A stretch of 64,000 nt of DNA, from positions 95,979-159,978 of the forward strand of contig CAKOYQ010000001.1 of the NCBI GenBank assembly GCA_934130935.1, read 5' to 3'. The notes below the pieces were generated by a model. It saw only the letters and a program-made list of their open reading frames with translations, had not been told where the DNA came from and did no database searches. This stretch comes from an uncultured Clostridia bacterium. Its GTDB lineage: Bacteria; Bacillota; Clostridia; TANB77; CAG-508. Both the position numbers and the translations under genes were made by a program. This document shows, piece after piece, positions 650 through 60,693 of this stretch; the first letter of the stretch is position 1, and every line of letters begins with the position of its first letter.

Positions 650-831
650 GAGAGACTTAAATATAAGCTTTGAATGAAATGACGAATGTGCATGGAGAAA
701 TTTTAGAAATTCTTATGTAGTTTTATGGTAAGAGTTCACGATAGTGGAAAGGACCCATAAAGCAAATTAGAATTTCTTAAATTTCGTAATAAGCCGAGGA
801 ATGTAATGAAAAGCTTATATTTAAGTCTCTC
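650..831. mobile_element. core repeat element copy A with 22-bp perfect terminal inverted repeats (MITE-like)
   Basis: The left end gagagacttaaatataagcttt and the right end aaagcttatatttaagtctctc are perfect inverted repeats. The conserved interior (gaatgaaatgacgaatg...gtaatgaaaag) is shared with the copies at 27207, 47078 and 60464. Confidence 0.6.
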
Positions 832-8461: not shown

Positions 8462-8536
8462 GGCCCGTTGGTCAAGCGGTTAAGACGCCACCCTCTCAAG
8501 GTGGAATCATGAGTTCGATTCTCGTACGGGTCACCA
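8462..8536 (+). tRNA. tRNA-Glu (anticodon CUC as read from the loop ctCTCaa; encoded CCA)
   Basis: The acceptor stem ggcccgt/acgggtc and the D-arm gtcaagcggttaagac match the bacterial tRNA-Glu identity. The anticodon stem is ccacc/ggtgg, the loop is c-t-CTC-a-a, and the T-loop is ttcgatt. Confidence 0.85.
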
Positions 8537-9487: not shown

Positions 9488-11809
9488 TTACTTATTCTTC
9501 TTTTTAAAATTTACCACAATAGCATTTTCATTATCAAATTCAAAATTCGCATCTGTATTGTCAATTTGAACAGGATTAAATTCATCTCTTTCGTCTACAA
9601 AATTGATATGTTTTGGATCAAATTTATTTCTTGTTGAGTCTTCTGAATCTTCATCATTTGCAACTCCTGGAGTAAATCTTGAAAAATCATATTTTTTAAC
9701 AGGCTGTTCTTCTTTATATTTAGAAGAAATAAAATTCATTTTTCCTTCACCTATAATAAAATCTCCAGTTTCTGCTTTTAGTTTAACAGCAGCTGACTTA
9801 AATTTTAAAGTTGCTAATTTGTTAGTCGCAAAATAACTTTCCCAATCATATTTTACACTTCCCCATTTTGCGTCATATTCTAATTTATTCATATCCATAC
9901 TATTTGAATAGGTCCATGTTCTTCTCTTTGTAAATTCTCGTGACCACCATTCCAATTCTTCTGGTGTAGATCCTCCCAAGAATATTTTACTAGCACAATT
10001 TGAAAGAATTGTATCTTTATATTTTAGCCTTGGAGAATTACCTTCCAACTGCGCTAAATTCTGTGCTGTAATTGTTGTTCCAACTTTATATTTACGGTAC
10101 AATGTAAACATTGCTTCTGTGTCTTTACATATAAAATCTGGAAATTCGTCTATATACAAGAAGTGCGGAATTCTACTATTCTCATTTCCTGCTCTTCTTA
10201 AAATAGCATTTTGCATTGACAACATAAAAAATAATCCAAATGCTCTATGGCTAGTTCTTCCTAAATCACCTCTACGTGTACAAACTAATGTAACCTCTCC
10301 ATTTTCCAATACTTTATCAAAATCTATATTATTATGCCTATTACATAAAATTGTTTTTACACCTGGTAGTCTTAACAAATTGTCTAATTGTGCTGTAGCT
10401 ATATAAATATATTTTTCTGTTTCCTCTCTTCCTGGACTTCCTGCATAAAAATTCTTTTTAAAATAATTTATTTGTATGCTATATTTTTTAGCAAGCTCAT
10501 CATTTGCCTTCATTATTTCACACATTTTTTCTACTAGGTCAAAATTAGTAAGCATTTTCAATAAATCTTCCAAATTAGGTATATTTCCGTTGTTCATTCT
10601 AGGATACATTTCTTTTAACATAATAGAAATATTTTCTAATGCTTGAATTATAAAATCTTCTCTATATGCTTCCTCTCTTTCCAAATGTGTACTTGCATAC
10701 ATTCCTTTTAATACTGATGAAATTGTTATAGCGATTTTTGATGCATCATCATATATAAATGGGTTTAATCCTATTGAATTCATATTTGATGGATCAATTA
10801 AATTGTATTTAATATGATAATTTTTACAAACATTCATTATTCTTGTTGCAGATTCTATATCTGGCGATATTGATGTTATTCCAAGGTTTCTATATACTAT
10901 ATCACTTCCAAGTGATGATAAAATCATTTTATTCATATATGCCTTATAAACCGCTTCTCTGCCAGTTGCTGGTGTTATCATATTTAAGTTAAAGTTATCA
11001 TTTAAATAATCATTATCATATGGTTTGTTTAATATTGCTATTCCTGTTTTTAATGCTGTATATCCCATTTCTTTTGCATTTGAAATATAAAATGCCTTTT
11101 TTTCTATATCTTTAGCCATCATTGGTTCTAATATTAATGATGTTTTTCCTGTTCCAGAACCTCCACATACTAATAGTGATTGATATCTACTCTTTTCTGC
11201 AAATACCATTTTCTTTCCACTTTCATAATTATTACACATATGTATGTCACATGTAAATGGTCCATGTCCTGCTGCTTTATTTGATAAGTTTATTCCTTTA
11301 TAGTCCCAAATAGATCTTGTTTGATCTTTACTGTCCATGATTCCTAATTTTATCCATTTAAACACACCATAAAATGTAGTTAATGGTAAATATAAAGCTA
11401 ATGCTGTTAATGCTGGTCTTATCAATTCTGAAAAATTTGTTACCAATTCTGTATATCCAGGTAATGATATCAAAAATAACCAAACTATTCTATTTATTCC
11501 TTGTGTAAACATTGAAACTGCAACTATATATAATGTTACAACATATGTAAGGAATAATGTAACCTTCATATTTTTTGATGTTGCAAATTCTGATGGTGGT
11601 GAAAATAAATATGCAAATACTGGACATGCCATTGCAAGTGTATATTGTATTGGTCCCCAATATGATACAGACACTCCTGTAAATATTAAAAATAACATCT
11701 CTACAACTCTATCTACTACTATATACAGTGATATTAATGTTAATATATATGTTGCAAATGTATTTCTACTTGCATTAATTTTCTTTAAAAATTTATCTAT
11801 TATTTTCAT
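9488..11809 (-). CDS. membrane-anchored TraG/TraD/VirD4-family (type IV coupling protein-like) P-loop ATPase
   Basis: 773 aa with about 5 N-terminal TM helices. Walker A is LVCGGSGTGKTS and Walker B is HFLYIDEFPDF. The downstream TITAQNLAQL...ILSNCASKIFLGG matches the T4CP QxxxQL/ilxN motifs. It is not FtsK/SpoIIIE, which would show a different Walker A and a gamma domain. Confidence 0.55.
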   Translation of the reverse strand: MKIIDKFLKKINASRNTFATYILTLISLYIVVDRVVEMLFLIFTGVSVSYWGPIQYTLAMACPVFAYLFSPPSEFATSKNMKVTLFLTYVVTLYIVAVSMFTQGINRIVWLFLISLPGYTELVTNFSELIRPALTALALYLPLTTFYGVFKWIKLGIMDSKDQTRSIWDYKGINLSNKAAGHGPFTCDIHMCNNYESGKKMVFAEKSRYQSLLVCGGSGTGKTSLILEPMMAKDIEKKAFYISNAKEMGYTALKTGIAILNKPYDNDYLNDNFNLNMITPATGREAVYKAYMNKMILSSLGSDIVYRNLGITSISPDIESATRIMNVCKNYHIKYNLIDPSNMNSIGLNPFIYDDASKIAITISSVLKGMYASTHLEREEAYREDFIIQALENISIMLKEMYPRMNNGNIPNLEDLLKMLTNFDLVEKMCEIMKANDELAKKYSIQINYFKKNFYAGSPGREETEKYIYIATAQLDNLLRLPGVKTILCNRHNNIDFDKVLENGEVTLVCTRRGDLGRTSHRAFGLFFMLSMQNAILRRAGNENSRIPHFLYIDEFPDFICKDTEAMFTLYRKYKVGTTITAQNLAQLEGNSPRLKYKDTILSNCASKIFLGGSTPEELEWWSREFTKRRTWTYSNSMDMNKLEYDAKWGSVKYDWESYFATNKLATLKFKSAAVKLKAETGDFIIGEGKMNFISSKYKEEQPVKKYDFSRFTPGVANDEDSEDSTRNKFDPKHINFVDERDEFNPVQIDNTDANFEFDNENAIVVNFKKKNK

Positions 11810-22489: not shown

Positions 22490-22598
22490 TTTACTTATCC
22501 TCCTTTGATTATCTTTAATATTTATATTAATAATCTATCATTTGTAGAAAATTAATTACTTAATATGTTTTTATTATACATTTAATTTTTTAAAAAAC

Positions 22599-22614
22599 TG
22601 TTGCAAATGCAACA
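22599..22614. promoter_or_regulatory. perfect 7-bp inverted repeat TGTTGCA-aa-TGCAACA in the nrdD / crp-like divergent promoter region
   Basis: Read directly in the sequence. An additional ATGAAAT...ATTTCAT dyad lies 10 nt downstream. Confidence 0.3.
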
Positions 22615-22721
22615 AAAATGAAATATAATTATTTCGAAATTTCATAATTTTTAGTATAATAATTATGTCGAATTTTGTACCTTTTGTGGCACATGATTTT
22701 GATAATTTAGAGGTGTTTTTT

Positions 22722-23351
22722 ATGGATACTAATTTTGATAAAAAAATTTTTTTAAAAAATTTCATTAATAATTGTAATAAAATTCAAATAAAAAAATTTG
22801 CAAAAGATGAAATTGTAACAACATATATAGAAAAACGTAATCAACTTTGTATAGTTTTATCAGGCGAAGTAGATTTAATAAGATATGATGTTAATGGAAA
22901 TAAAACAATAATTAGCCACTTTGTTACTGATGATGTATTTGGTGAAGTTTTTTATCCTGCAAATACTAATAATGAGCTTTTTGCTATTGCACGTAAAAAT
23001 TCTGAAATATTATTTTACACATATGATTCTTTACTAACAAAATGTAGACGTAATTGTGATTTTCATAAAACTCTTACTAGTAGTTTAAGTGAACTTTTTT
23101 TAAATAATATTGTTGAATTAAATTTGCGTATAGAATTACTTACAAAAAGAAGTACTAGAAGTAAAATACTTTCTTATTTTGATATTCTATCAAAAGGCTC
23201 TTTAAGAAAAACTTTTACATTGCCATACACCTACACAGATTTAGCTGATTTTTTAAGTGTTGATAGAAGTGCTATGATGAGAGAATTAAAATTACTAATT
23301 GATGATGGATTCATCAAAAAAGATGGAAGCAAAATCACTTTATTGTATTAA
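22722..23351 (+). CDS. Crp/Fnr family transcriptional regulator
   Basis: An N-terminal cNMP-binding beta-roll is followed by a C-terminal HTH (RSKILSYFDILS...YTDLADFLSVDRSAMMRELKLL). The start is moved to the ATG at 22722, which has a GAGGTG RBS. The 22665 start of the ORF track has none. Confidence 0.7.
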   Translation: MDTNFDKKIFLKNFINNCNKIQIKKFAKDEIVTTYIEKRNQLCIVLSGEVDLIRYDVNGNKTIISHFVTDDVFGEVFYPANTNNELFAIARKNSEILFYTYDSLLTKCRRNCDFHKTLTSSLSELFLNNIVELNLRIELLTKRSTRSKILSYFDILSKGSLRKTFTLPYTYTDLADFLSVDRSAMMRELKLLIDDGFIKKDGSKITLLY

Positions 23352-27105: not shown

Positions 27106-27485
27106 GGGTAATTTGGGGGACATTTGGGGTCGGTTCCGTTTTTGCCCAATGGGGTAATTCGGGGTCGGTTCCATTTTTGCCCTTTTTCTCTTAAATATGA
27201 TAATTATTAATATTAAATATAAACTTTAAATGAAATGACGAATATGATTGGAGAAACTTTAGAAATTCTACGAAATTTTATGGAAAGAGTTCACGAGAGT
27301 GGAAGGGTGCCATAAAATAAGTTAGAATTTCTTAAGTTTCGTAATGAATCGAGGGAATGTAATGCAAAGTTTATATTTAATATTAATAAATTAGTTATGT
27401 CTCGAAAAGGGCAAAAGTGGAACCGACCCCGAATTACCCCATTGGGCAAAAACGGAACCGACCCCAAATGTCCCCCAAATTACCC
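27106..27485. mobile_element. composite palindromic element: 77-bp inverted arms (two GGGCAA-hairpin units each) flanking a ~180-bp copy of the conserved core element (MITE-like)
   Basis: The left arm 27106-27182 and the right arm 27409-27485 are reverse complements with a single mismatch. The core at 27207-27386 is homologous to the cores at 650-831, 47078-47259 and 60464-60630. Confidence 0.6.
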
Positions 27486-47077: not shown

Positions 47078-47259
47078 CTCTTAGAATACTATAAACTTTG
47101 AATGAAATTCCGAATGTGCATGTAGAACCTTTAGAAATTTTTATGTAATTTTATGGAAAGAGTTCACGAGAGTGGAAGGGTGCCATAAAATAAATTAAAA
47201 TTTCTTAAGGTTCGAAATAAACCGAGGAATGAAATGAAAAGTTTATAGTATTCTAAGAG
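47078..47259. mobile_element. core repeat element copy C with 22-bp terminal inverted repeats (MITE-like), between Alg13-like gene stop and ftsE promoter
   Basis: The left end ctcttagaatactataaacttt and the right end aaagtttatagtattctaagag are perfect inverted repeats. The core is homologous to the copies at 650, 27207 and 60464. Confidence 0.6.
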
Positions 47260-48387: not shown

Positions 48388-49272
48388 TTATGCTCTTGGA
48401 TGTGCTTTTTTATAAATATTTTTTAATGATTCATCTTGAAACTGCATATATACTTGCGTTGATAAAATATCAGAATGTCCTAACATAGTTTGAATAGATT
48501 TTAAGTCTGCACCATTTTGTAATAAATGTGTTGCAAATGAATGACGTAAAACATGTGGTGTTATGTCTTTATCTATATGTGCTTGGTCTTTGTAATATTT
48601 TATAATTTTCCAAAATCCTTGTCTTGTTAAACGTTTTCCATTTACATTTACAAATAATGCATTTTGCTTCTCATCTTTAATCATTATTTTTCTTGCATTA
48701 AGTATATAATCTTTCAAAGCTTTTAAAGACATGTTTCCTATTGGCACTGTTCTCTCTTTTTTGCCATTTCTACATGTTGCATACCCTGTTTCTAAATTAA
48801 TATCTTCAACATTTAAAGATATAATTTCTGTTACTCTCATTCCTGTGGCATAAGCAAATTCAAGCATAGCTTTATCTCTTATTCCTTTTAAATTAACATT
48901 TTTAGGTTGTTCTAATAATAATGCAACTTCATTTGATGTTAATACATTTGGTACTCTTTTTTCTATTTTTGGAGATTGAATCCCTTCTGTTGGGTCTTTT
49001 TCCACAACTTTGTTTTTTACTTCATATTGATAAAATGACCTTATTGACGCTAATCCTCTTGATATTGTTGATGGCTTTTTTCCTATTTCTTGCATATGTG
49101 CTAGATATGTTTTTATTCCTTCTTCTGTTAACTCGCTATAATCTTCTCTTCCTTCTTCTAACATGTATTTTTCAAATTGTTTTAAATCTCTCTTATATGA
49201 TTGAAGTGTGTTTATTGACACTTTTTTCTCATTCTCCAAAAAATCAAAAAATAAGTTTAATTGCTCTTCCAT
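48388..49272 (-). CDS. xerD: site-specific tyrosine recombinase XerD/XerC-like
   Basis: It has an N-terminal SAM-like domain and a catalytic C-terminus (HVLRHSFATHLLQNGADLKSIQTMLGHSDILSTQVY). It lies next to spoIIM, as in Bacillus/Clostridium. I placed the start at the ATG with a GGGGGAA RBS. Confidence 0.8.
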   Translation of the reverse strand: MEEQLNLFFDFLENEKKVSINTLQSYKRDLKQFEKYMLEEGREDYSELTEEGIKTYLAHMQEIGKKPSTISRGLASIRSFYQYEVKNKVVEKDPTEGIQSPKIEKRVPNVLTSNEVALLLEQPKNVNLKGIRDKAMLEFAYATGMRVTEIISLNVEDINLETGYATCRNGKKERTVPIGNMSLKALKDYILNARKIMIKDEKQNALFVNVNGKRLTRQGFWKIIKYYKDQAHIDKDITPHVLRHSFATHLLQNGADLKSIQTMLGHSDILSTQVYMQFQDESLKNIYKKAHPRA

Positions 49273-49385
49273 TTTTTCCCCCATCTACGATATATTTTAT
49301 TGTCTCTTATCAATTATTTACATAACTGATTGTTACTATGTTATATCAAATTTTTAATAAAAAGTAAAGAGATTTTATATAATTT

Positions 49386-56194: not shown

Positions 56195-57247
56195 TTATTT
56201 GAATTTAGTTTTTAAACCTCTAATATTTCTAAATGCTTTCTCAGAAAATTTATATAATGAATATGTTAATGGCTTGAATGGTATATAAACCTCTCCTATA
56301 AATTCTGTAAATGTAGCACCAAATCCTTTTTTAAATCTGTATAGTCCATATTGTGGATGACTTTCATCAACTACCCCAGATACCCCTCTAAAATCATAAA
56401 CATCATCTTTTCTTGCAATAGCCATTTTTATCATTTCCCATTGCAATAAATAGTTTGGCATTAAATTTCTGTGTTCATTACTACTTGCACCATACAAATA
56501 CCAAGTTTTATTTCCATAAAAAATAGGAATCACTCCTGATATTGGCTTATCCTCATAATATGCCATCAATAATTTCATATGTTTTGGTGCTAATTCATCA
56601 TACATTTTTTCAAAATATGATAACGGTCTTATTATAAATCCATCTCTCGCACCCGTTTCTACCATTATTTTATGAAAATCCTTTAAATCTTCTCTTGTTC
56701 CTTCTTTTACTACTACTCCTTTTTTAGTTGCTAAACGTACATTGTATCTTGTTTTAGAATGAAAACCAGAAAATATTTCTTCTTCTGTTTTACCTTTTAT
56801 ATCTAATCTAAATACATATCTTGGCTGTATTTCCTCTCTAAAGTTTCTCGCATCATCCTTTATTTTATATCCTAAGTTAGTTACAACCTTTCTAAATTCT
56901 TCATCACTGCTTAATATGTCTGGCTCTGCTTTATAAACAATCGCTTTATACTTTTGTGCTAATTCTTTTATTCCATCTGTTAATTGTTTCATTACTTTTA
57001 TATCATGTATGTCACAAGTTGGTCCTCTTGATGAATACATTATATTTCCAAAAAGAGGTATCTTTCTTATTAAAACACTTACCGCTCCAATAATTTTTCC
57101 ACTTCCATCTTCTGCTAGTACTACTTCATTTATCCAGTTTGACTTTACTTTTGCCCATTCTGGTGATTGTTGAAAATTACATCTATCATGCCTTTCTAAA
57201 AAGTCTTTATATTCTTTTCTACTTTTTTCATCTGTTACGAATCTCAT
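56195..57247 (-). CDS. FemAB-family peptidoglycan interpeptide aminoacyltransferase (FemX-like, no coiled-coil insert)
   Basis: 350 aa with the FemABX N-terminal pattern FLERHDRCNFQQSPEWAKVK and the GNAT-like duplicated fold. The stop is 23 nt from the alr start. Confidence 0.7.
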   Translation of the reverse strand: MRFVTDEKSRKEYKDFLERHDRCNFQQSPEWAKVKSNWINEVVLAEDGSGKIIGAVSVLIRKIPLFGNIMYSSRGPTCDIHDIKVMKQLTDGIKELAQKYKAIVYKAEPDILSSDEEFRKVVTNLGYKIKDDARNFREEIQPRYVFRLDIKGKTEEEIFSGFHSKTRYNVRLATKKGVVVKEGTREDLKDFHKIMVETGARDGFIIRPLSYFEKMYDELAPKHMKLLMAYYEDKPISGVIPIFYGNKTWYLYGASSNEHRNLMPNYLLQWEMIKMAIARKDDVYDFRGVSGVVDESHPQYGLYRFKKGFGATFTEFIGEVYIPFKPLTYSLYKFSEKAFRNIRGLKTKFK

Positions 57248-57368
57248 TTTTTTAACCTCATTTCTTTATGCTCTCTTTATTATTTACTTTTTGCCTTTAT
57301 TTTACACTAAATATATTATTTTTACAAGACTTTTTATAAGAAAAATTTAGATATCGTTACTAGCAAAT

Positions 57369-57658
57369 GGATTAAGCATTACATGTTTTTTTACAACCTA
57401 AGGTAGGCCCAAAGGAGGAATTGCATAAAATAAATGAAAGATTTTGTGTATCTAATCTTAACACTAGAAGTTCTTATAGAAGCAAATGAGGAATGTTCAC
57501 GGGCAAACTTGTAAGTTTGAGCTTGAGTGAAAGAGGCTCATTTGATTCAATTAGAACTTCTGTGGTAAGATTGGCTTATCCAAAATCTGTAATGGTTTTT
57601 ATGCAATTCCTCCTTTGGGCCCACCTTAGGTTGTAAAAAAACATGTAACACTTAATCC
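57369..57658. mobile_element. 290-bp palindromic element with 62-bp near-perfect terminal inverted repeats (MITE-like or structured RNA)
   Basis: The left TIR (57369-57430) and the right TIR (57597-57658) differ at 3 positions. Nested internal dyads include CAAACTTgtAAGTTTG. Each TIR carries AAAGGAGGA. Confidence 0.55.
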
Positions 57659-57671
57659 CATTAAATAGTAA

Positions 57672-60389
57672 TTAAATATTTTCCTTTACCATTTTTTCAA
57701 GAGAATCGATTAAGCTCTGTAGTTTTTTTAAATCTGAGCCCATCATTTCCCAATCATTTCTATCATTAGACTCTGTCAAATTTTTATTTGCATCTATAAT
57801 AGCTTGAATCATCCCATCCACATCTTCAGTATTTGTAACATTAATATTTACAGCTGATTGTGATAATAGATTAGTAATTGCTTCACTTAATGTATCTCCT
57901 ATTGCAACTTTCGTTCCAGAAGCAACAATTACCTTTTTTAACGTAGTTGGTTGATTAGGTTCATTTGTCATAGTTTGATAAATTGTTTCAACATATAAAA
58001 CGCTATTATTAAGTGGAATTATTTTCATCTCTTTTGAAATTTTGCTTCCTGTAACATTAATAGAAGTAAGTTCTGCTGAAATTGTCTCATCCTGTTCTAT
58101 TTGATTATCTAACTGAATTGGTCCCAAAATATTACTATCTGATGGATATTTATAAATTTTTAACTTACATTCAGTTCCATCACATGTTCCCACTAGATAT
58201 GAAGTAATATTTGATTTTCCATTTTGAGTATACATTTGGACTAGTCCAAACTCGGCATCCTCATTATTTGGAGCTTTAATCATAGCATAATATGGTTGTA
58301 ATGTTGATACTTTTGATTTTGAAGACGTAGTACCATATTTAGCTAATGCCCATATATCACTATTTCTATATAACACATCTTCTTTTACATTATGATATAC
58401 CATAAGCATTTCAGATTGAACCTTATACAAAAATTCTGAATACTTGAATTGTGATTTTATTCCTTGTGGAATTTCTTTTTCTGTATAATCTGGAAAAACA
58501 GTTGGATATAATTTTAAATAAGCCATTATTACTGGGTCATTTCTATCTGTTATATAAAAATCCATATCACCATTATAAGCATTTACAATTACTTTTACTG
58601 AATTTCTTATATAATTAATATTTCGTTTAGCTCCATCATATTCAATTTCTGTAAATGTCGAATATGGATATTTATCAGAAACAGTATATGCATCTAATAC
58701 CCAATAAATTTGACCGTTATCTATAACTGTATATGGATTTTCATCATATATCAAATTTGGTAATATCGTTCTTGCTCTTTCTATTATATTTCTATTTGTC
58801 AATATCTTGCTTTCTTTTGAAACAGTTGTTGACATTGCAAGTTTTATATCTTTATTTTTTATTGCCAATATTAGTCTATCAAAAAATCCAACCTGTATCC
58901 CTGAATTACCATTATAATTATATGTATGCTCAACTCCAGAATTATCAGTATAGTCATATTCTGTCTTGTTCTTTGTATTTGTAACAGCAACACTATTTGT
59001 TTCAACACCATAGTATATCCTTGGTTCTTTTATTTCATATATATTATCTACTCCACTTATATCTTTTTGTAAATATTGAATATTTCCATTTTCTTCAACA
59101 TGTGTTGCAGAAACAACAATTTGTCCAATTCCATGTGTATATTCATATGTTTTATTATTATAAGATATTGAATTATTCTCAATCTCTCTTGGAGTCACAT
59201 ACACTAATTTATCATTACCTTTTATGTTATACTTTGAAAGAGTTGCATCTCTAAATGTATAATATCCAGTTTCAGTTTGGGTATCTTTTAAACTTTGAAC
59301 AACTAAATCTTTGTCCACTATTACTATATTATCAATAACATCAGAATTTTGTTGAATTTCTTCTTCTTTTATTGTTCCAGAATAGTCAACACTTGTTTCT
59401 TCTACATCTATATCATATGCATCCTGAGTAGATTTAATATTTTCAGATATATATTTTCTTTCTTTATCAAATTTGTTAGATTTTACAAAAATCAAATTAT
59501 ATCCTACCATAACTATAAATAATGCTACTAAATATATAGGAATAGCTAATAATGGATATATAATCTTTTTATTTTGCTTCTTTATAAAATAATTTACAGC
59601 TATTATTACAGAAATTGTAATTACTATTGATAGCAATAAATATCCCCATAACTGAATTGTTGATTCAACAATTCCAGCACCTGTTAATTCTGTTCCATTA
59701 CTTAAAGTTAAAAACTTCCCTACAACTATATTTTGTGTATTTAACATGTTATATAACCCTATTGCTATGGCTAGCATAATAGTGTTTCTTAATAATTTTT
59801 TTATAAGTTTACTTTCACGTAATAAATCTCTATCAACAGCTTTAAAATATACATTAAACACTATTATATAATATCCAACCATATATATGCTAACACCCAT
59901 TATTAGTCTAATAAAATGCCATAGCAATGACTCTATCAATGGTTTTATAAACATATAATATGATATATCAAGATTAAATATTATATCTGTTTTTCCAAAT
60001 GATGCATTACTTACAAACAATAGTACTTTGTCTAGTAAATTGTTTGATATAATTACACTTGCTATTGCTGAAATTATTAAAACTATCGATTTGTTAGGGA
60101 GTTTTGGTACTTCAAGTTTTTCTTGTTCAAAAAAAGGCTTTAGTCCTTTTTTTATTCCAATATTCGTAAAATATAAGATTATACACAAAAATACAAATGA
60201 AATTCCCATTATTGAATATTTATATTTTATTTCTGTAAAAAACTTTTCTACATATTGCTCTCCAATTTCAACATATTCTAAATATTGTCCTCTTAATGAT
60301 ATATATGTTGCAAATATATATATTGCAATAAATGCAATTACAATTATTGCTCTTACTTTTTTGCTAATCTTTACTTTATTTTTTTCCAT
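57672..60389 (-). CDS. UPF0182 family large membrane protein
   Basis: 905 aa with about 7 N-terminal TM helices and a large extracytoplasmic domain. The length and topology are typical of UPF0182. Confidence 0.6.
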   Translation of the reverse strand: MEKNKVKISKKVRAIIVIAFIAIYIFATYISLRGQYLEYVEIGEQYVEKFFTEIKYKYSIMGISFVFLCIILYFTNIGIKKGLKPFFEQEKLEVPKLPNKSIVLIISAIASVIISNNLLDKVLLFVSNASFGKTDIIFNLDISYYMFIKPLIESLLWHFIRLIMGVSIYMVGYYIIVFNVYFKAVDRDLLRESKLIKKLLRNTIMLAIAIGLYNMLNTQNIVVGKFLTLSNGTELTGAGIVESTIQLWGYLLLSIVITISVIIAVNYFIKKQNKKIIYPLLAIPIYLVALFIVMVGYNLIFVKSNKFDKERKYISENIKSTQDAYDIDVEETSVDYSGTIKEEEIQQNSDVIDNIVIVDKDLVVQSLKDTQTETGYYTFRDATLSKYNIKGNDKLVYVTPREIENNSISYNNKTYEYTHGIGQIVVSATHVEENGNIQYLQKDISGVDNIYEIKEPRIYYGVETNSVAVTNTKNKTEYDYTDNSGVEHTYNYNGNSGIQVGFFDRLILAIKNKDIKLAMSTTVSKESKILTNRNIIERARTILPNLIYDENPYTVIDNGQIYWVLDAYTVSDKYPYSTFTEIEYDGAKRNINYIRNSVKVIVNAYNGDMDFYITDRNDPVIMAYLKLYPTVFPDYTEKEIPQGIKSQFKYSEFLYKVQSEMLMVYHNVKEDVLYRNSDIWALAKYGTTSSKSKVSTLQPYYAMIKAPNNEDAEFGLVQMYTQNGKSNITSYLVGTCDGTECKLKIYKYPSDSNILGPIQLDNQIEQDETISAELTSINVTGSKISKEMKIIPLNNSVLYVETIYQTMTNEPNQPTTLKKVIVASGTKVAIGDTLSEAITNLLSQSAVNINVTNTEDVDGMIQAIIDANKNLTESNDRNDWEMMGSDLKKLQSLIDSLEKMVKENI

Positions 60390-60405
60390 GCATTTTCTCC
60401 TTTTA

Positions 60406-60687
60406 GGGCAAATTGGGGTCGGTTCTTTTTTTGCCCTCTTAATAATTTATTAGAATTACCAATATAAATATAAATTTTAAATGAAATGACGAATGTAATT
60501 GGAGAAACTTTAGAAATTGTATGAAATTTCATGGAAATAGTTCATGAGAATGAAAGGGTGCCATAAAATAAATTACAATTTCTTAAGTTTCGTAATGCGC
60601 CGAGGAGTGTAATGAAAAATTTATATTTATATTAGTAATTAGTATTAAAAATTAAAGGGCAAAAAAAGAACCGACCCCAATTTGCCC
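60406..60687. mobile_element. composite palindromic element: perfect 31-bp inverted GGGCAA-hairpin arms flanking core repeat copy D
   Basis: The arm at 60406-60436 is the reverse complement of the arm at 60657-60687. The core at 60464-60630 has aaaattt/aaatttt subterminal repeats. The element fills the ftsY-to-UPF0182 intergenic region. Confidence 0.65.
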
Positions 60688-60693
60688 TTTTTT

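Follow-up and report, generated by a model that had tools for sequence, protein, structure and literature searches.

A 290-nt palindrome behind a UPF0182 gene, a probable copy of a species-restricted repeat family in an uncultured Clostridia bacterium

Introduction

ERIC and Correia elements are transcribed with their neighbors as hairpins, which are either cut by RNase III or stabilize the message. Both kinds, Correia elements in Neisseria and ERIC or IRU elements in enterobacteria, are dispersed intergenic imperfect palindromes in which inverted repeats surround a conserved core, and both are present or absent between close relatives. According to one description (PMC2649163), the Correia element combines an inverted repeat and a core that is conserved with binding of RNase III. 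MITEs are small, non-coding, multi-copy elements with terminal inverted repeats; they expand in a species-specific manner and leave filled and empty sites between relatives. REP/BIME sequences, which are linked to RAYT genes, are extragenic palindromes located after stop codons or within operons, often as inverted pairs. At cwpV, 21-bp repeats recognized by the recombinase RecV lie upstream of a single surface-protein gene, and the segment between them is found in both orientations with no promoter inside (PMC2784873). Finally, template switching between inverted repeats has been reported to homogenize the arms and to invert the spacer (PMC8604942).

We analyzed a stretch of 64,000 nt from an uncultured Clostridia bacterium (the window), which is 28% G+C and carries almost all of its genes on the − strand. 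At positions 57369–57658 it contains a near-perfect palindrome of 290 nt in total, here called F1, of which a second copy (F2) lies just outside the window.

F1 shares with Correia and ERIC elements the imperfect palindromic layout around a conserved core and the presence or absence between close relatives, but it has no sequence relationship to them and two to three times their length, conservation is lowest at its ends, and it shows neither a TA-type target duplication nor a promoter at its ends. With MITEs it shares terminal inverted repeats (arms of 62–78 nt), a small non-coding size (290 nt), multiple copies, a species-specific expansion and a pattern of filled and empty sites between relatives. 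However, the inspected copies showed no target-site duplication, and a parent insertion sequence whose ends match was not found. The ends of F1 and F2 are also their least conserved part (arms ~62% and center 95% identical between the copies), which is the reverse of a MITE and speaks against this likeness. The position after stop codons and within operons recalls REPs, and the GGGGTCGGTTCC modules that surround two members of the family look REP-like and may themselves qualify, but REPs measure 20–40 nt whereas this hairpin measures at least 290 nt and has a structured core, and the 84 kb examined yielded no RAYT (Y1/HUH) gene. As at cwpV, a segment between inverted repeats occurs in both orientations with no promoter inside (PMC2784873), and an effect through the structure of read-through RNA is conceivable. 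Here, in contrast, the repeats are dispersed, measure 33–91 nt and vary in sequence by copy, and both orientations were seen for F2 and two further copies (c60447 and c27200) but never for F1. Exchange between nearby inverted repeats by template switching or recombination (quasi-palindrome correction) predicts homogenized arms and spacer inversion (PMC8604942), both of which are seen here. This mutational mechanism has been described mostly for short repeats in yeast and E. coli, whereas it would here act recurrently on a 290–380-bp family in wild gut populations.

Results

Analysis of the F1 sequence bore out the 62-bp terminal inverted repeats with 3 mismatches described in the earlier note on this DNA, as well as the AAAGGAGGA motif in both arms and the nested inner dyads at the places given there, including caaatgag/ctcatttg (57483–57490/57537–57544) and the inner stem agaagttct/agaacttct. 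The inverted repeat reaches 78 nt at 90% (57369–57446/57581–57658), and pairing goes on weakly out to ~57360–57670 (~311 nt). Each arm contains one of the only two occurrences in the window of a 25-mer, GGCCCAAAGGAGGAATTGCATAAAA, for which 0 are expected. The 311-nt RNA folded at −154.7 and −154.8 kcal/mol on the two strands, against −56 and −64 kcal/mol for shuffled sequences (z = −19.9 and −17.9); the pairing of F1 is far above chance. No credible ORF was found in F1. On the gene-sense strand, the 9-mer TAGTAACGA follows the arm at 57362–57354 and is common to F1 and F2 at an equal offset, so that the element may own a short asymmetric tail. The alignment of the tails as a whole was not significant (110 of 1000 shuffles), and part of the F1 tail may instead be ancestral flank. 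The features of F1 and its relatives are listed in Table 1.

Table 1. Positions, arms and orientation of F1, its relatives and adjoining features (window coordinates unless a locus is given; inverted, number of sequences with the interior inverted out of those compared)
Feature	Position	Strand	Arms or length	Inverted	Remark
F1	57369–57658		62 nt, 3 mismatches	0/14	
F1 left arm	57369–57430		62 nt		Carries SD-like AAAGGAGGA
F1 right arm	57597–57658		62 nt		
F1 interior	57431–57596	+	166 nt		Conserved; imperfect hairpin by itself
F1 extra apical hairpin CAAACTTgtAAGTTTG	57504–57519				25 nt inserted vs 3 in the R1 model
Possible asymmetric F1 tail	57336–57368	− (gene-sense)			Holds TAGTAACGA; boundary uncertain
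Outer weakly paired extension of F1	57659–57671				Between right arm and UPF0182 stop codon
Promoter-like site of femAB–alr, TTGTAA-17-TAAAAT	57327–57299	−			Outside F1, between F1 and femAB
F2	L001 1357–1646		~70 nt, perfect	4/11	
c641	Core 657–824	+	40 nt at 85%	0/9	
c27200	27106–27485, core 27213–27380	+	81 nt, 99%	3/8	Wrapped by inverted GGGGTCGGTTCC modules
c47070	47085–47252	+	36 nt at 86%	0/12	
c60447	60405–60688, core 60464–60630	+	33 nt, perfect	2/13	Between inverted modules
GGGGTCGGTTCC..TTTTTGCCC hairpin modules	27106–27186, 27405–27485, 60405–60437, 60656–60688; L013 7033–7145; L038 6998–7078				Separate REP-like repeat
XerD-like gene	48388–49284				Only recombinase nearby

F1 fills most of a 424-nt spacer between two − strand genes. 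Upstream of it ends the gene for a 905-aa UPF0182 protein (stop codon, 57672–57674), and downstream lies a gene for a 350-aa FemAB-family protein starting at 57247, followed by that for alanine racemase (alr). Since the promoter-like site of femAB is conserved outside F1, being kept in three relatives that all lack the element (L013, L015 and L038), F1 belongs to the 3′ end of UPF0182, upstream of that promoter. A scan of F1 detected no sigma-70-type promoter or intrinsic-terminator consensus inside it; on the gene-sense strand it gave 0 terminator-like sites, and the AUUUGCUAG that follows the hairpin is not a U-tract. Neither orientation of F2 gave a promoter or terminator consensus, and scans for both inside four elements remained at chance level. 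The placement upstream of femX/alr in the earlier note implies a role there, which disagrees both with a promoter-like site that is conserved with or without the element and with the lack of a promoter consensus within it; we found no evidence that F1 regulates femAB or alr. The proposed donation of an SD-like sequence did not hold either. F2 has AAGAAT at the AGGAGG position, so the motif is not a feature of the family; moreover, it has no start codon at a usable spacing and is hidden within a perfect duplex.

Many contigs from human-gut metagenomes encode the FemAB protein, and F1 was found at the same place in 13 further sequences of the same species (L001–L010, L017, L035 and L036), with 0–4 differences in the ten that were compared base by base. 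Across L001–L010, the spacer (57248–57671) contains 9 variable sites, all of them in the 290-nt palindrome and 6 in its arms; the 134 nt of flank contain 0. One arm pair (57405/57622, read in gene sense) appears as G-C, as G·U in three strains including that of the window, and as A-U in L005. F1 was absent from every relative examined, and two related species have ordinary terminators at this spot: L013, whose FemAB is 93% identical, has a 134-nt spacer with a small intrinsic terminator (AAAAAAGAGTG..CACTCTTTTTTT), and L038–L040 have a 177-nt spacer with a terminator of 16-bp stem. The place of F1 is taken by a DUF5665 gene in L015 and by opposite-strand genes in L041 and L042, and the upstream genes of L014 and L016 are different ones. 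The species-variable presence anticipated for the element was thus seen in the orthologous spacers. Because those spacers lack F1, a single copy held at a position conserved across the genus, which the earlier note had set against its repeat reading, does not describe this element.

A profile search of the fetched loci revealed F2 ~1.6 kb past the window's right end, at a distance of 7.9 kb from F1, in agreement with the proposal that the F1 palindrome is repeated and not unique. F2 is flanked by a split NFACT gene and by the glyS T-box leader; it has overwritten the last NFACT codons, and the stop codon falls within its left arm. The interiors of the two copies are identical at 158 of 166 positions (95%), whereas their arms are only ~62% identical, a similarity that remains significant, with 0 of 1000 shuffles reaching it. 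Homology links the F1 arms with the F2 arms and neither with its own flanks, and the arms of F2 are perfectly self-complementary over ~70 nt.

NFACT (L001 1–1355, about 65.9–67.2 kb in extended window coordinates; L035 6203–7931) is split here into two overlapping ORFs of 506 and 80 aa, and relatives have a single NFACT gene of 552–571 aa. Directly downstream of F2 (L001 1690–1985) come a perfect TTGACA-17-TATAAT promoter and, likewise ahead of glyS, a T-box-like leader; both are conserved in L013 and L038.

We then compared F1 with four hairpins of the window that have 168-nt cores (c641, c27200, c47070 and c60447, the last of which fills the FtsY–UPF0182 spacer). These cores show 89% mean column identity and a consensus fold of 52 pairs, ten of which have compensatory changes. 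A covariance model of the four cores (R1) was run window-wide with filters off and matched F1 over the full length of the model (positions 1–168) at 57421–57606 on the + strand, with 42.7 bits and an E-value of 2.8e-7. The − strand of the F1 hairpin scored 8.6 bits and unrelated hairpins of the window scored at most 17 bits; since the alignment is model-fitted and any palindrome pairs, the strand-specific score is the meaningful control. In L001, R1 gave 53.1 bits for F1 and 50.0 bits for F2. In the R1–F1 alignment, F1 makes 45 of the 52 pairs of the model, 17 of these having changed on both sides, 22 of 36 conserved unpaired positions are identical, and ~25 nt including the CAAACTTgtAAGTTTG hairpin stand in F1 for the GAGA tetraloop region. 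Pairwise Smith–Waterman alignment of F1 with the 168-nt cores was not significant and MAFFT misaligned them, so that only the covariance model showed the kinship and the relationship must be distant.

Judged by its fit to the model, F1 is a divergent relative or subfamily of the 168-nt hairpin family. This strand-specific match contradicts the view of F1 as a third independent family, and its end-to-end alignment contradicts the claim that F1 is unrelated in sequence to the other families of the window. The GTTCACG(A/G)G motif, noted before as the one exception between unrelated families, is indeed shared, but given the R1 match it belongs to the homologous apical region.

Six copies (two of the F type and four c hairpins) thus lie within about 84 kb of this species, and neither family was detected in 125 kb from six related species searched with filters off. 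All six are located in the spacer just past the stop codon of the upstream gene, within ~13 nt of it for F1, F2, c47070 and c60447, and all lie within co-directional gene arrays. At F1, F2, c641 and c27200, the element stands upstream of the recognizable promoter of the next gene. Comparison of the flanks with sister spacers gave no target-site duplication at F1, F2, c641 and c47070, with direct repeats of at most 3–4 nt, and no transposase or Y1/HUH gene was found in the window or the fetched loci. Several candidates were rejected. The + strand ORFs considered as a transposase or recombinase beside the elements encode a Crp-like regulator, a D-Ala-D-Ala carboxypeptidase, a peroxiredoxin and a phosphorylase. 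A likeness of the cores to a dif/Xer site (ACTT..TAGAA..TTATGTA) was dropped, the TTATGTA half being present in 2 of the 4 cores and absent from F1. A 6S-like RNA and a single-strand origin were set aside on account of the copy number and the lack of a model match.

Database searches covered RNA families, mobile elements and genome collections. F1 has the stable RNA fold that the earlier note had suggested looking for (z of −18 to −20), but no Rfam family: Rfam returned only tRNA for the whole window at the gathering threshold and, for F1 and a related copy at an E-value threshold, only plant microRNA hairpins with 67–74 bits against thresholds of 211–245. A blastn search with F1 and a related composite found no match in phage and plasmid collections. 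Exact 20/21-mers of the arms matched the same locus alone in a metagenome collection and nothing in a viral collection, in which the core motifs and the module motif were likewise not found. In a genome collection, the arm 20/21-mers gave two chance matches at gene starts; the element's own locus was also missed, so this search is uninformative on copy number. A literature search for the loop sequence returned nothing.

Comparison of strains revealed inversion of those members whose arms are long and perfect, F2, c60447 and c27200 (Table 1). At F2, the strains share identical arms, with the ~166-nt interior reverse-complemented. Both alleles of an interior SNP (cacGgg/cacTgg) are found in both orientations, and therefore the inversion of F2 happened more than once. 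In addition, a variant found in the left arm of the unflipped L008 appears as its complement in the right arm of the flipped L004 and L006. The inversion boundaries of c60447 are its 33-nt modules. The repeats bounding the flips have no sequence relationship between F2 and the copies flanked by modules, which favors homology-driven inversion over a site-specific invertase. Both orientations occur in contigs named k141_*; if, as we infer from the contig names, this stands for MEGAHIT with k = 141, a k-mer that exceeds the repeats in length, an assembly-graph artifact is unlikely. F1 has a 52-nt perfect repeat in 7 of 11 strains compared and is still flipped in none of 14 sequences, whereas a copy with 33-nt repeats flips; something besides the quality of its arms may fix F1 in one orientation. 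The XerD-like gene lies next to spoIIM in the six relatives for which this region was recovered, all of them without the elements. To our knowledge, inversion of the interior between strains is not a described feature of Correia or ERIC elements.

In all six cores, the R1-matching strand (the + strand of the window, antisense to the genes) folds 5–14 kcal/mol better than the other strand, the difference being 8 kcal/mol for F1, and it has more G·U pairs, purine-rich internal loops and a GNRA-type loop. This strand is antisense to the genes in the three fixed copies and in the majority state of the three flipping copies. Scans detected no consistent promoter before the cores. The contrast between 95% interior and 62% arm identity, taken with the folding advantage of one strand, leaves room for a function of the core and suggests that it is under selection. 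Because the copies share ancestry, the strand bias amounts to about one observation, and because nearly all genes of the window lie on one strand, co-oriented with replication, orientation relative to transcription and orientation relative to replication are inseparable.

Discussion

With a probability that we put at about 0.6, F1 is a copy of a non-autonomous, species-restricted palindromic repeat of the Correia/ERIC/MITE kind that has displaced the terminator of UPF0182. The family would consist of a conserved, strand-asymmetric core hairpin of ~166 nt and of long arms that vary by copy yet stay complementary within a copy. F1 would have arrived by insertion, or have spread through recombination, once the lineage had diverged from the sister species, displacing the ancestral UPF0182 terminator, and would now be transcribed with UPF0182 as the 3′ untranslated part of its message. 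There, its duplex of ~145 bp may hinder 3′ exonucleases, be cut by RNase III or stand in leakily for a terminator, as has been described for Correia, ERIC and REP elements. Homologous recombination or replication template switching between the arms would keep them matched and occasionally flip the interior with no dedicated invertase, and the SD-like motif of F1 would be incidental.

The occurrence of three family members in both orientations among strains, and the recurrence of inversion, might instead reflect a programmed invertible switch that works through RNA. Inversion at the arms would then place either the core or its complement into the operon transcript and so change the termination, processing or stability of the neighbors, in the manner of the cwpV switch of Clostridioides difficile, whose promoter lies outside the invertible segment. 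The strand asymmetry of the core, the lack of a promoter inside, as in cwpV (PMC2784873), and the position of every copy in co-directional gene arrays are consistent with such a switch. However, F1 has one orientation in 14 of 14 sequences, and the inversion boundaries are any long perfect repeat, unrelated in sequence, which points to homology as the driver. The nearby XerD-like gene keeps its position in relatives that have no elements, a terminator consensus appears in neither orientation, and the flanking genes are housekeeping genes and not genes of surface variation, so that we consider a programmed switch improbable. We give similarly little credence to mobile switch cassettes working at the level of RNA or single-stranded DNA, in which a conserved, strand-asymmetric core of ~170 nt would be toggled on or off the transcribed strand by recurrent inversion at co-evolving arms and F1 would be fixed in one state. 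If the cassette reading were true, insertion directly behind stop codons within operons would confer a heritable and reversible control over read-through, processing or stability of the housekeeping genes downstream.

A functional structured nucleic acid in the core, with the arms as its scaffold, is rather unlikely in our view; it could be an antisense small RNA or a single-stranded DNA hairpin used in replication or mobilization. It would account for an interior kept at 95% between F1 and F2 while the arms fell to ~62%, for the compensatory pairs (ten among the four cores and 17 between the cores and F1), and for the better folding of the same strand in all six copies, with its purine-rich loops and GNRA-type loop and its antisense placement in the fixed copies and in the majority state of the flippers. 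On the other hand, arm homogenization in a DNA palindrome also yields covariation without selection, the shared ancestry reduces the strand bias to about one observation, and the near-uniform gene strand confounds transcription with replication orientation. Rfam offered only the plant microRNA hairpins far under threshold, and the R1-matching strand has no consistent promoter or terminator. The palindrome could also have grown in place from the UPF0182 terminator by inverted duplication and arm extension, with F2 produced by local gene conversion. The spacer hairpin does differ in each of three species, arm length and content vary by copy, and the outermost F1 pairs (GGGATTAAG/CTTAATCC) are similar to the foot of the terminator stem in L038 (GGGGGATTTAAGG/CTTAAATTC). 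Yet five other, unrelated loci have cores homologous to the F1 interior, the F1 and F2 arms match each other and not their own flanks, and the alignment of the filled spacer with that of L038 is fragmentary, all of which makes growth in place doubtful. A small gene is hardly credible. AGGAGG, 15 nt and an ATG can be read directly on the + strand ahead of a 26-codon ORF (57434–57514) with a hydrophobic stretch, and an SD sequestered by the right arm recalls type I toxin mRNAs. This idea was rejected because F2 has no SD-like motif, the spacing from SD to ATG is too long, the related 168-nt cores have no equivalent ORF, and the F2 interior inverts regardless of reading frame.

If the palindromic-repeat reading of F1 is correct, these elements would form an undescribed bacterial repeat family with an inverted conservation pattern, in which the core is kept and the arms evolve fast and in concert. 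They would also be a natural example from the human gut of close inverted repeats that homogenize their arms and repeatedly flip the spacer. Gut metagenome surveys of invertible DNA will score such elements as phase-variable switches, although the elements may be passive. They also break or scramble metagenomic assemblies, with contigs ending at them. Since they replace terminators and overwrite the final codons of the genes upstream, operon annotation is affected in this abundant, uncultured lineage.

Additional observations

The number of GGGGTCGGTTCC..TTTTTGCCC modules varies between strains (L027), and related species have tandem GGGACCGGTTC-type modules in the FtsY–UPF0182 spacer with no core. 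In L034, modules lie directly upstream of an RNHCP gene, and in L029 (400–530) MinC is found beyond the modules in place of RNase Y. Several metagenomic contigs end at modules (the starts of L033 and L034 and the end of L036), and the strain differences past the modules suggest rearrangement or assembly breaks at the repeats.

Other variable segments were noted in the region. An island of ~4.5 kb with a 591-aa large serine recombinase (L019 and L022, 11437–16360) is present in some strains and splits a Hydrolase_2 (cortex-lytic-enzyme-like) gene that is intact in others. A tRNA gene (8462–8533) adjoins a 773-aa ORF resembling a TraG/T4SS coupling protein (9488–11809), possibly marking the edge of an integrated conjugative element; this region varies between strains, with IstB_IS21 fragments in L018 and L021. 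Finally, an inverted repeat with 30-nt arms at 80%, 140 nt apart, lies at 22573–22772 of the window, upstream of a Crp-like regulator gene.
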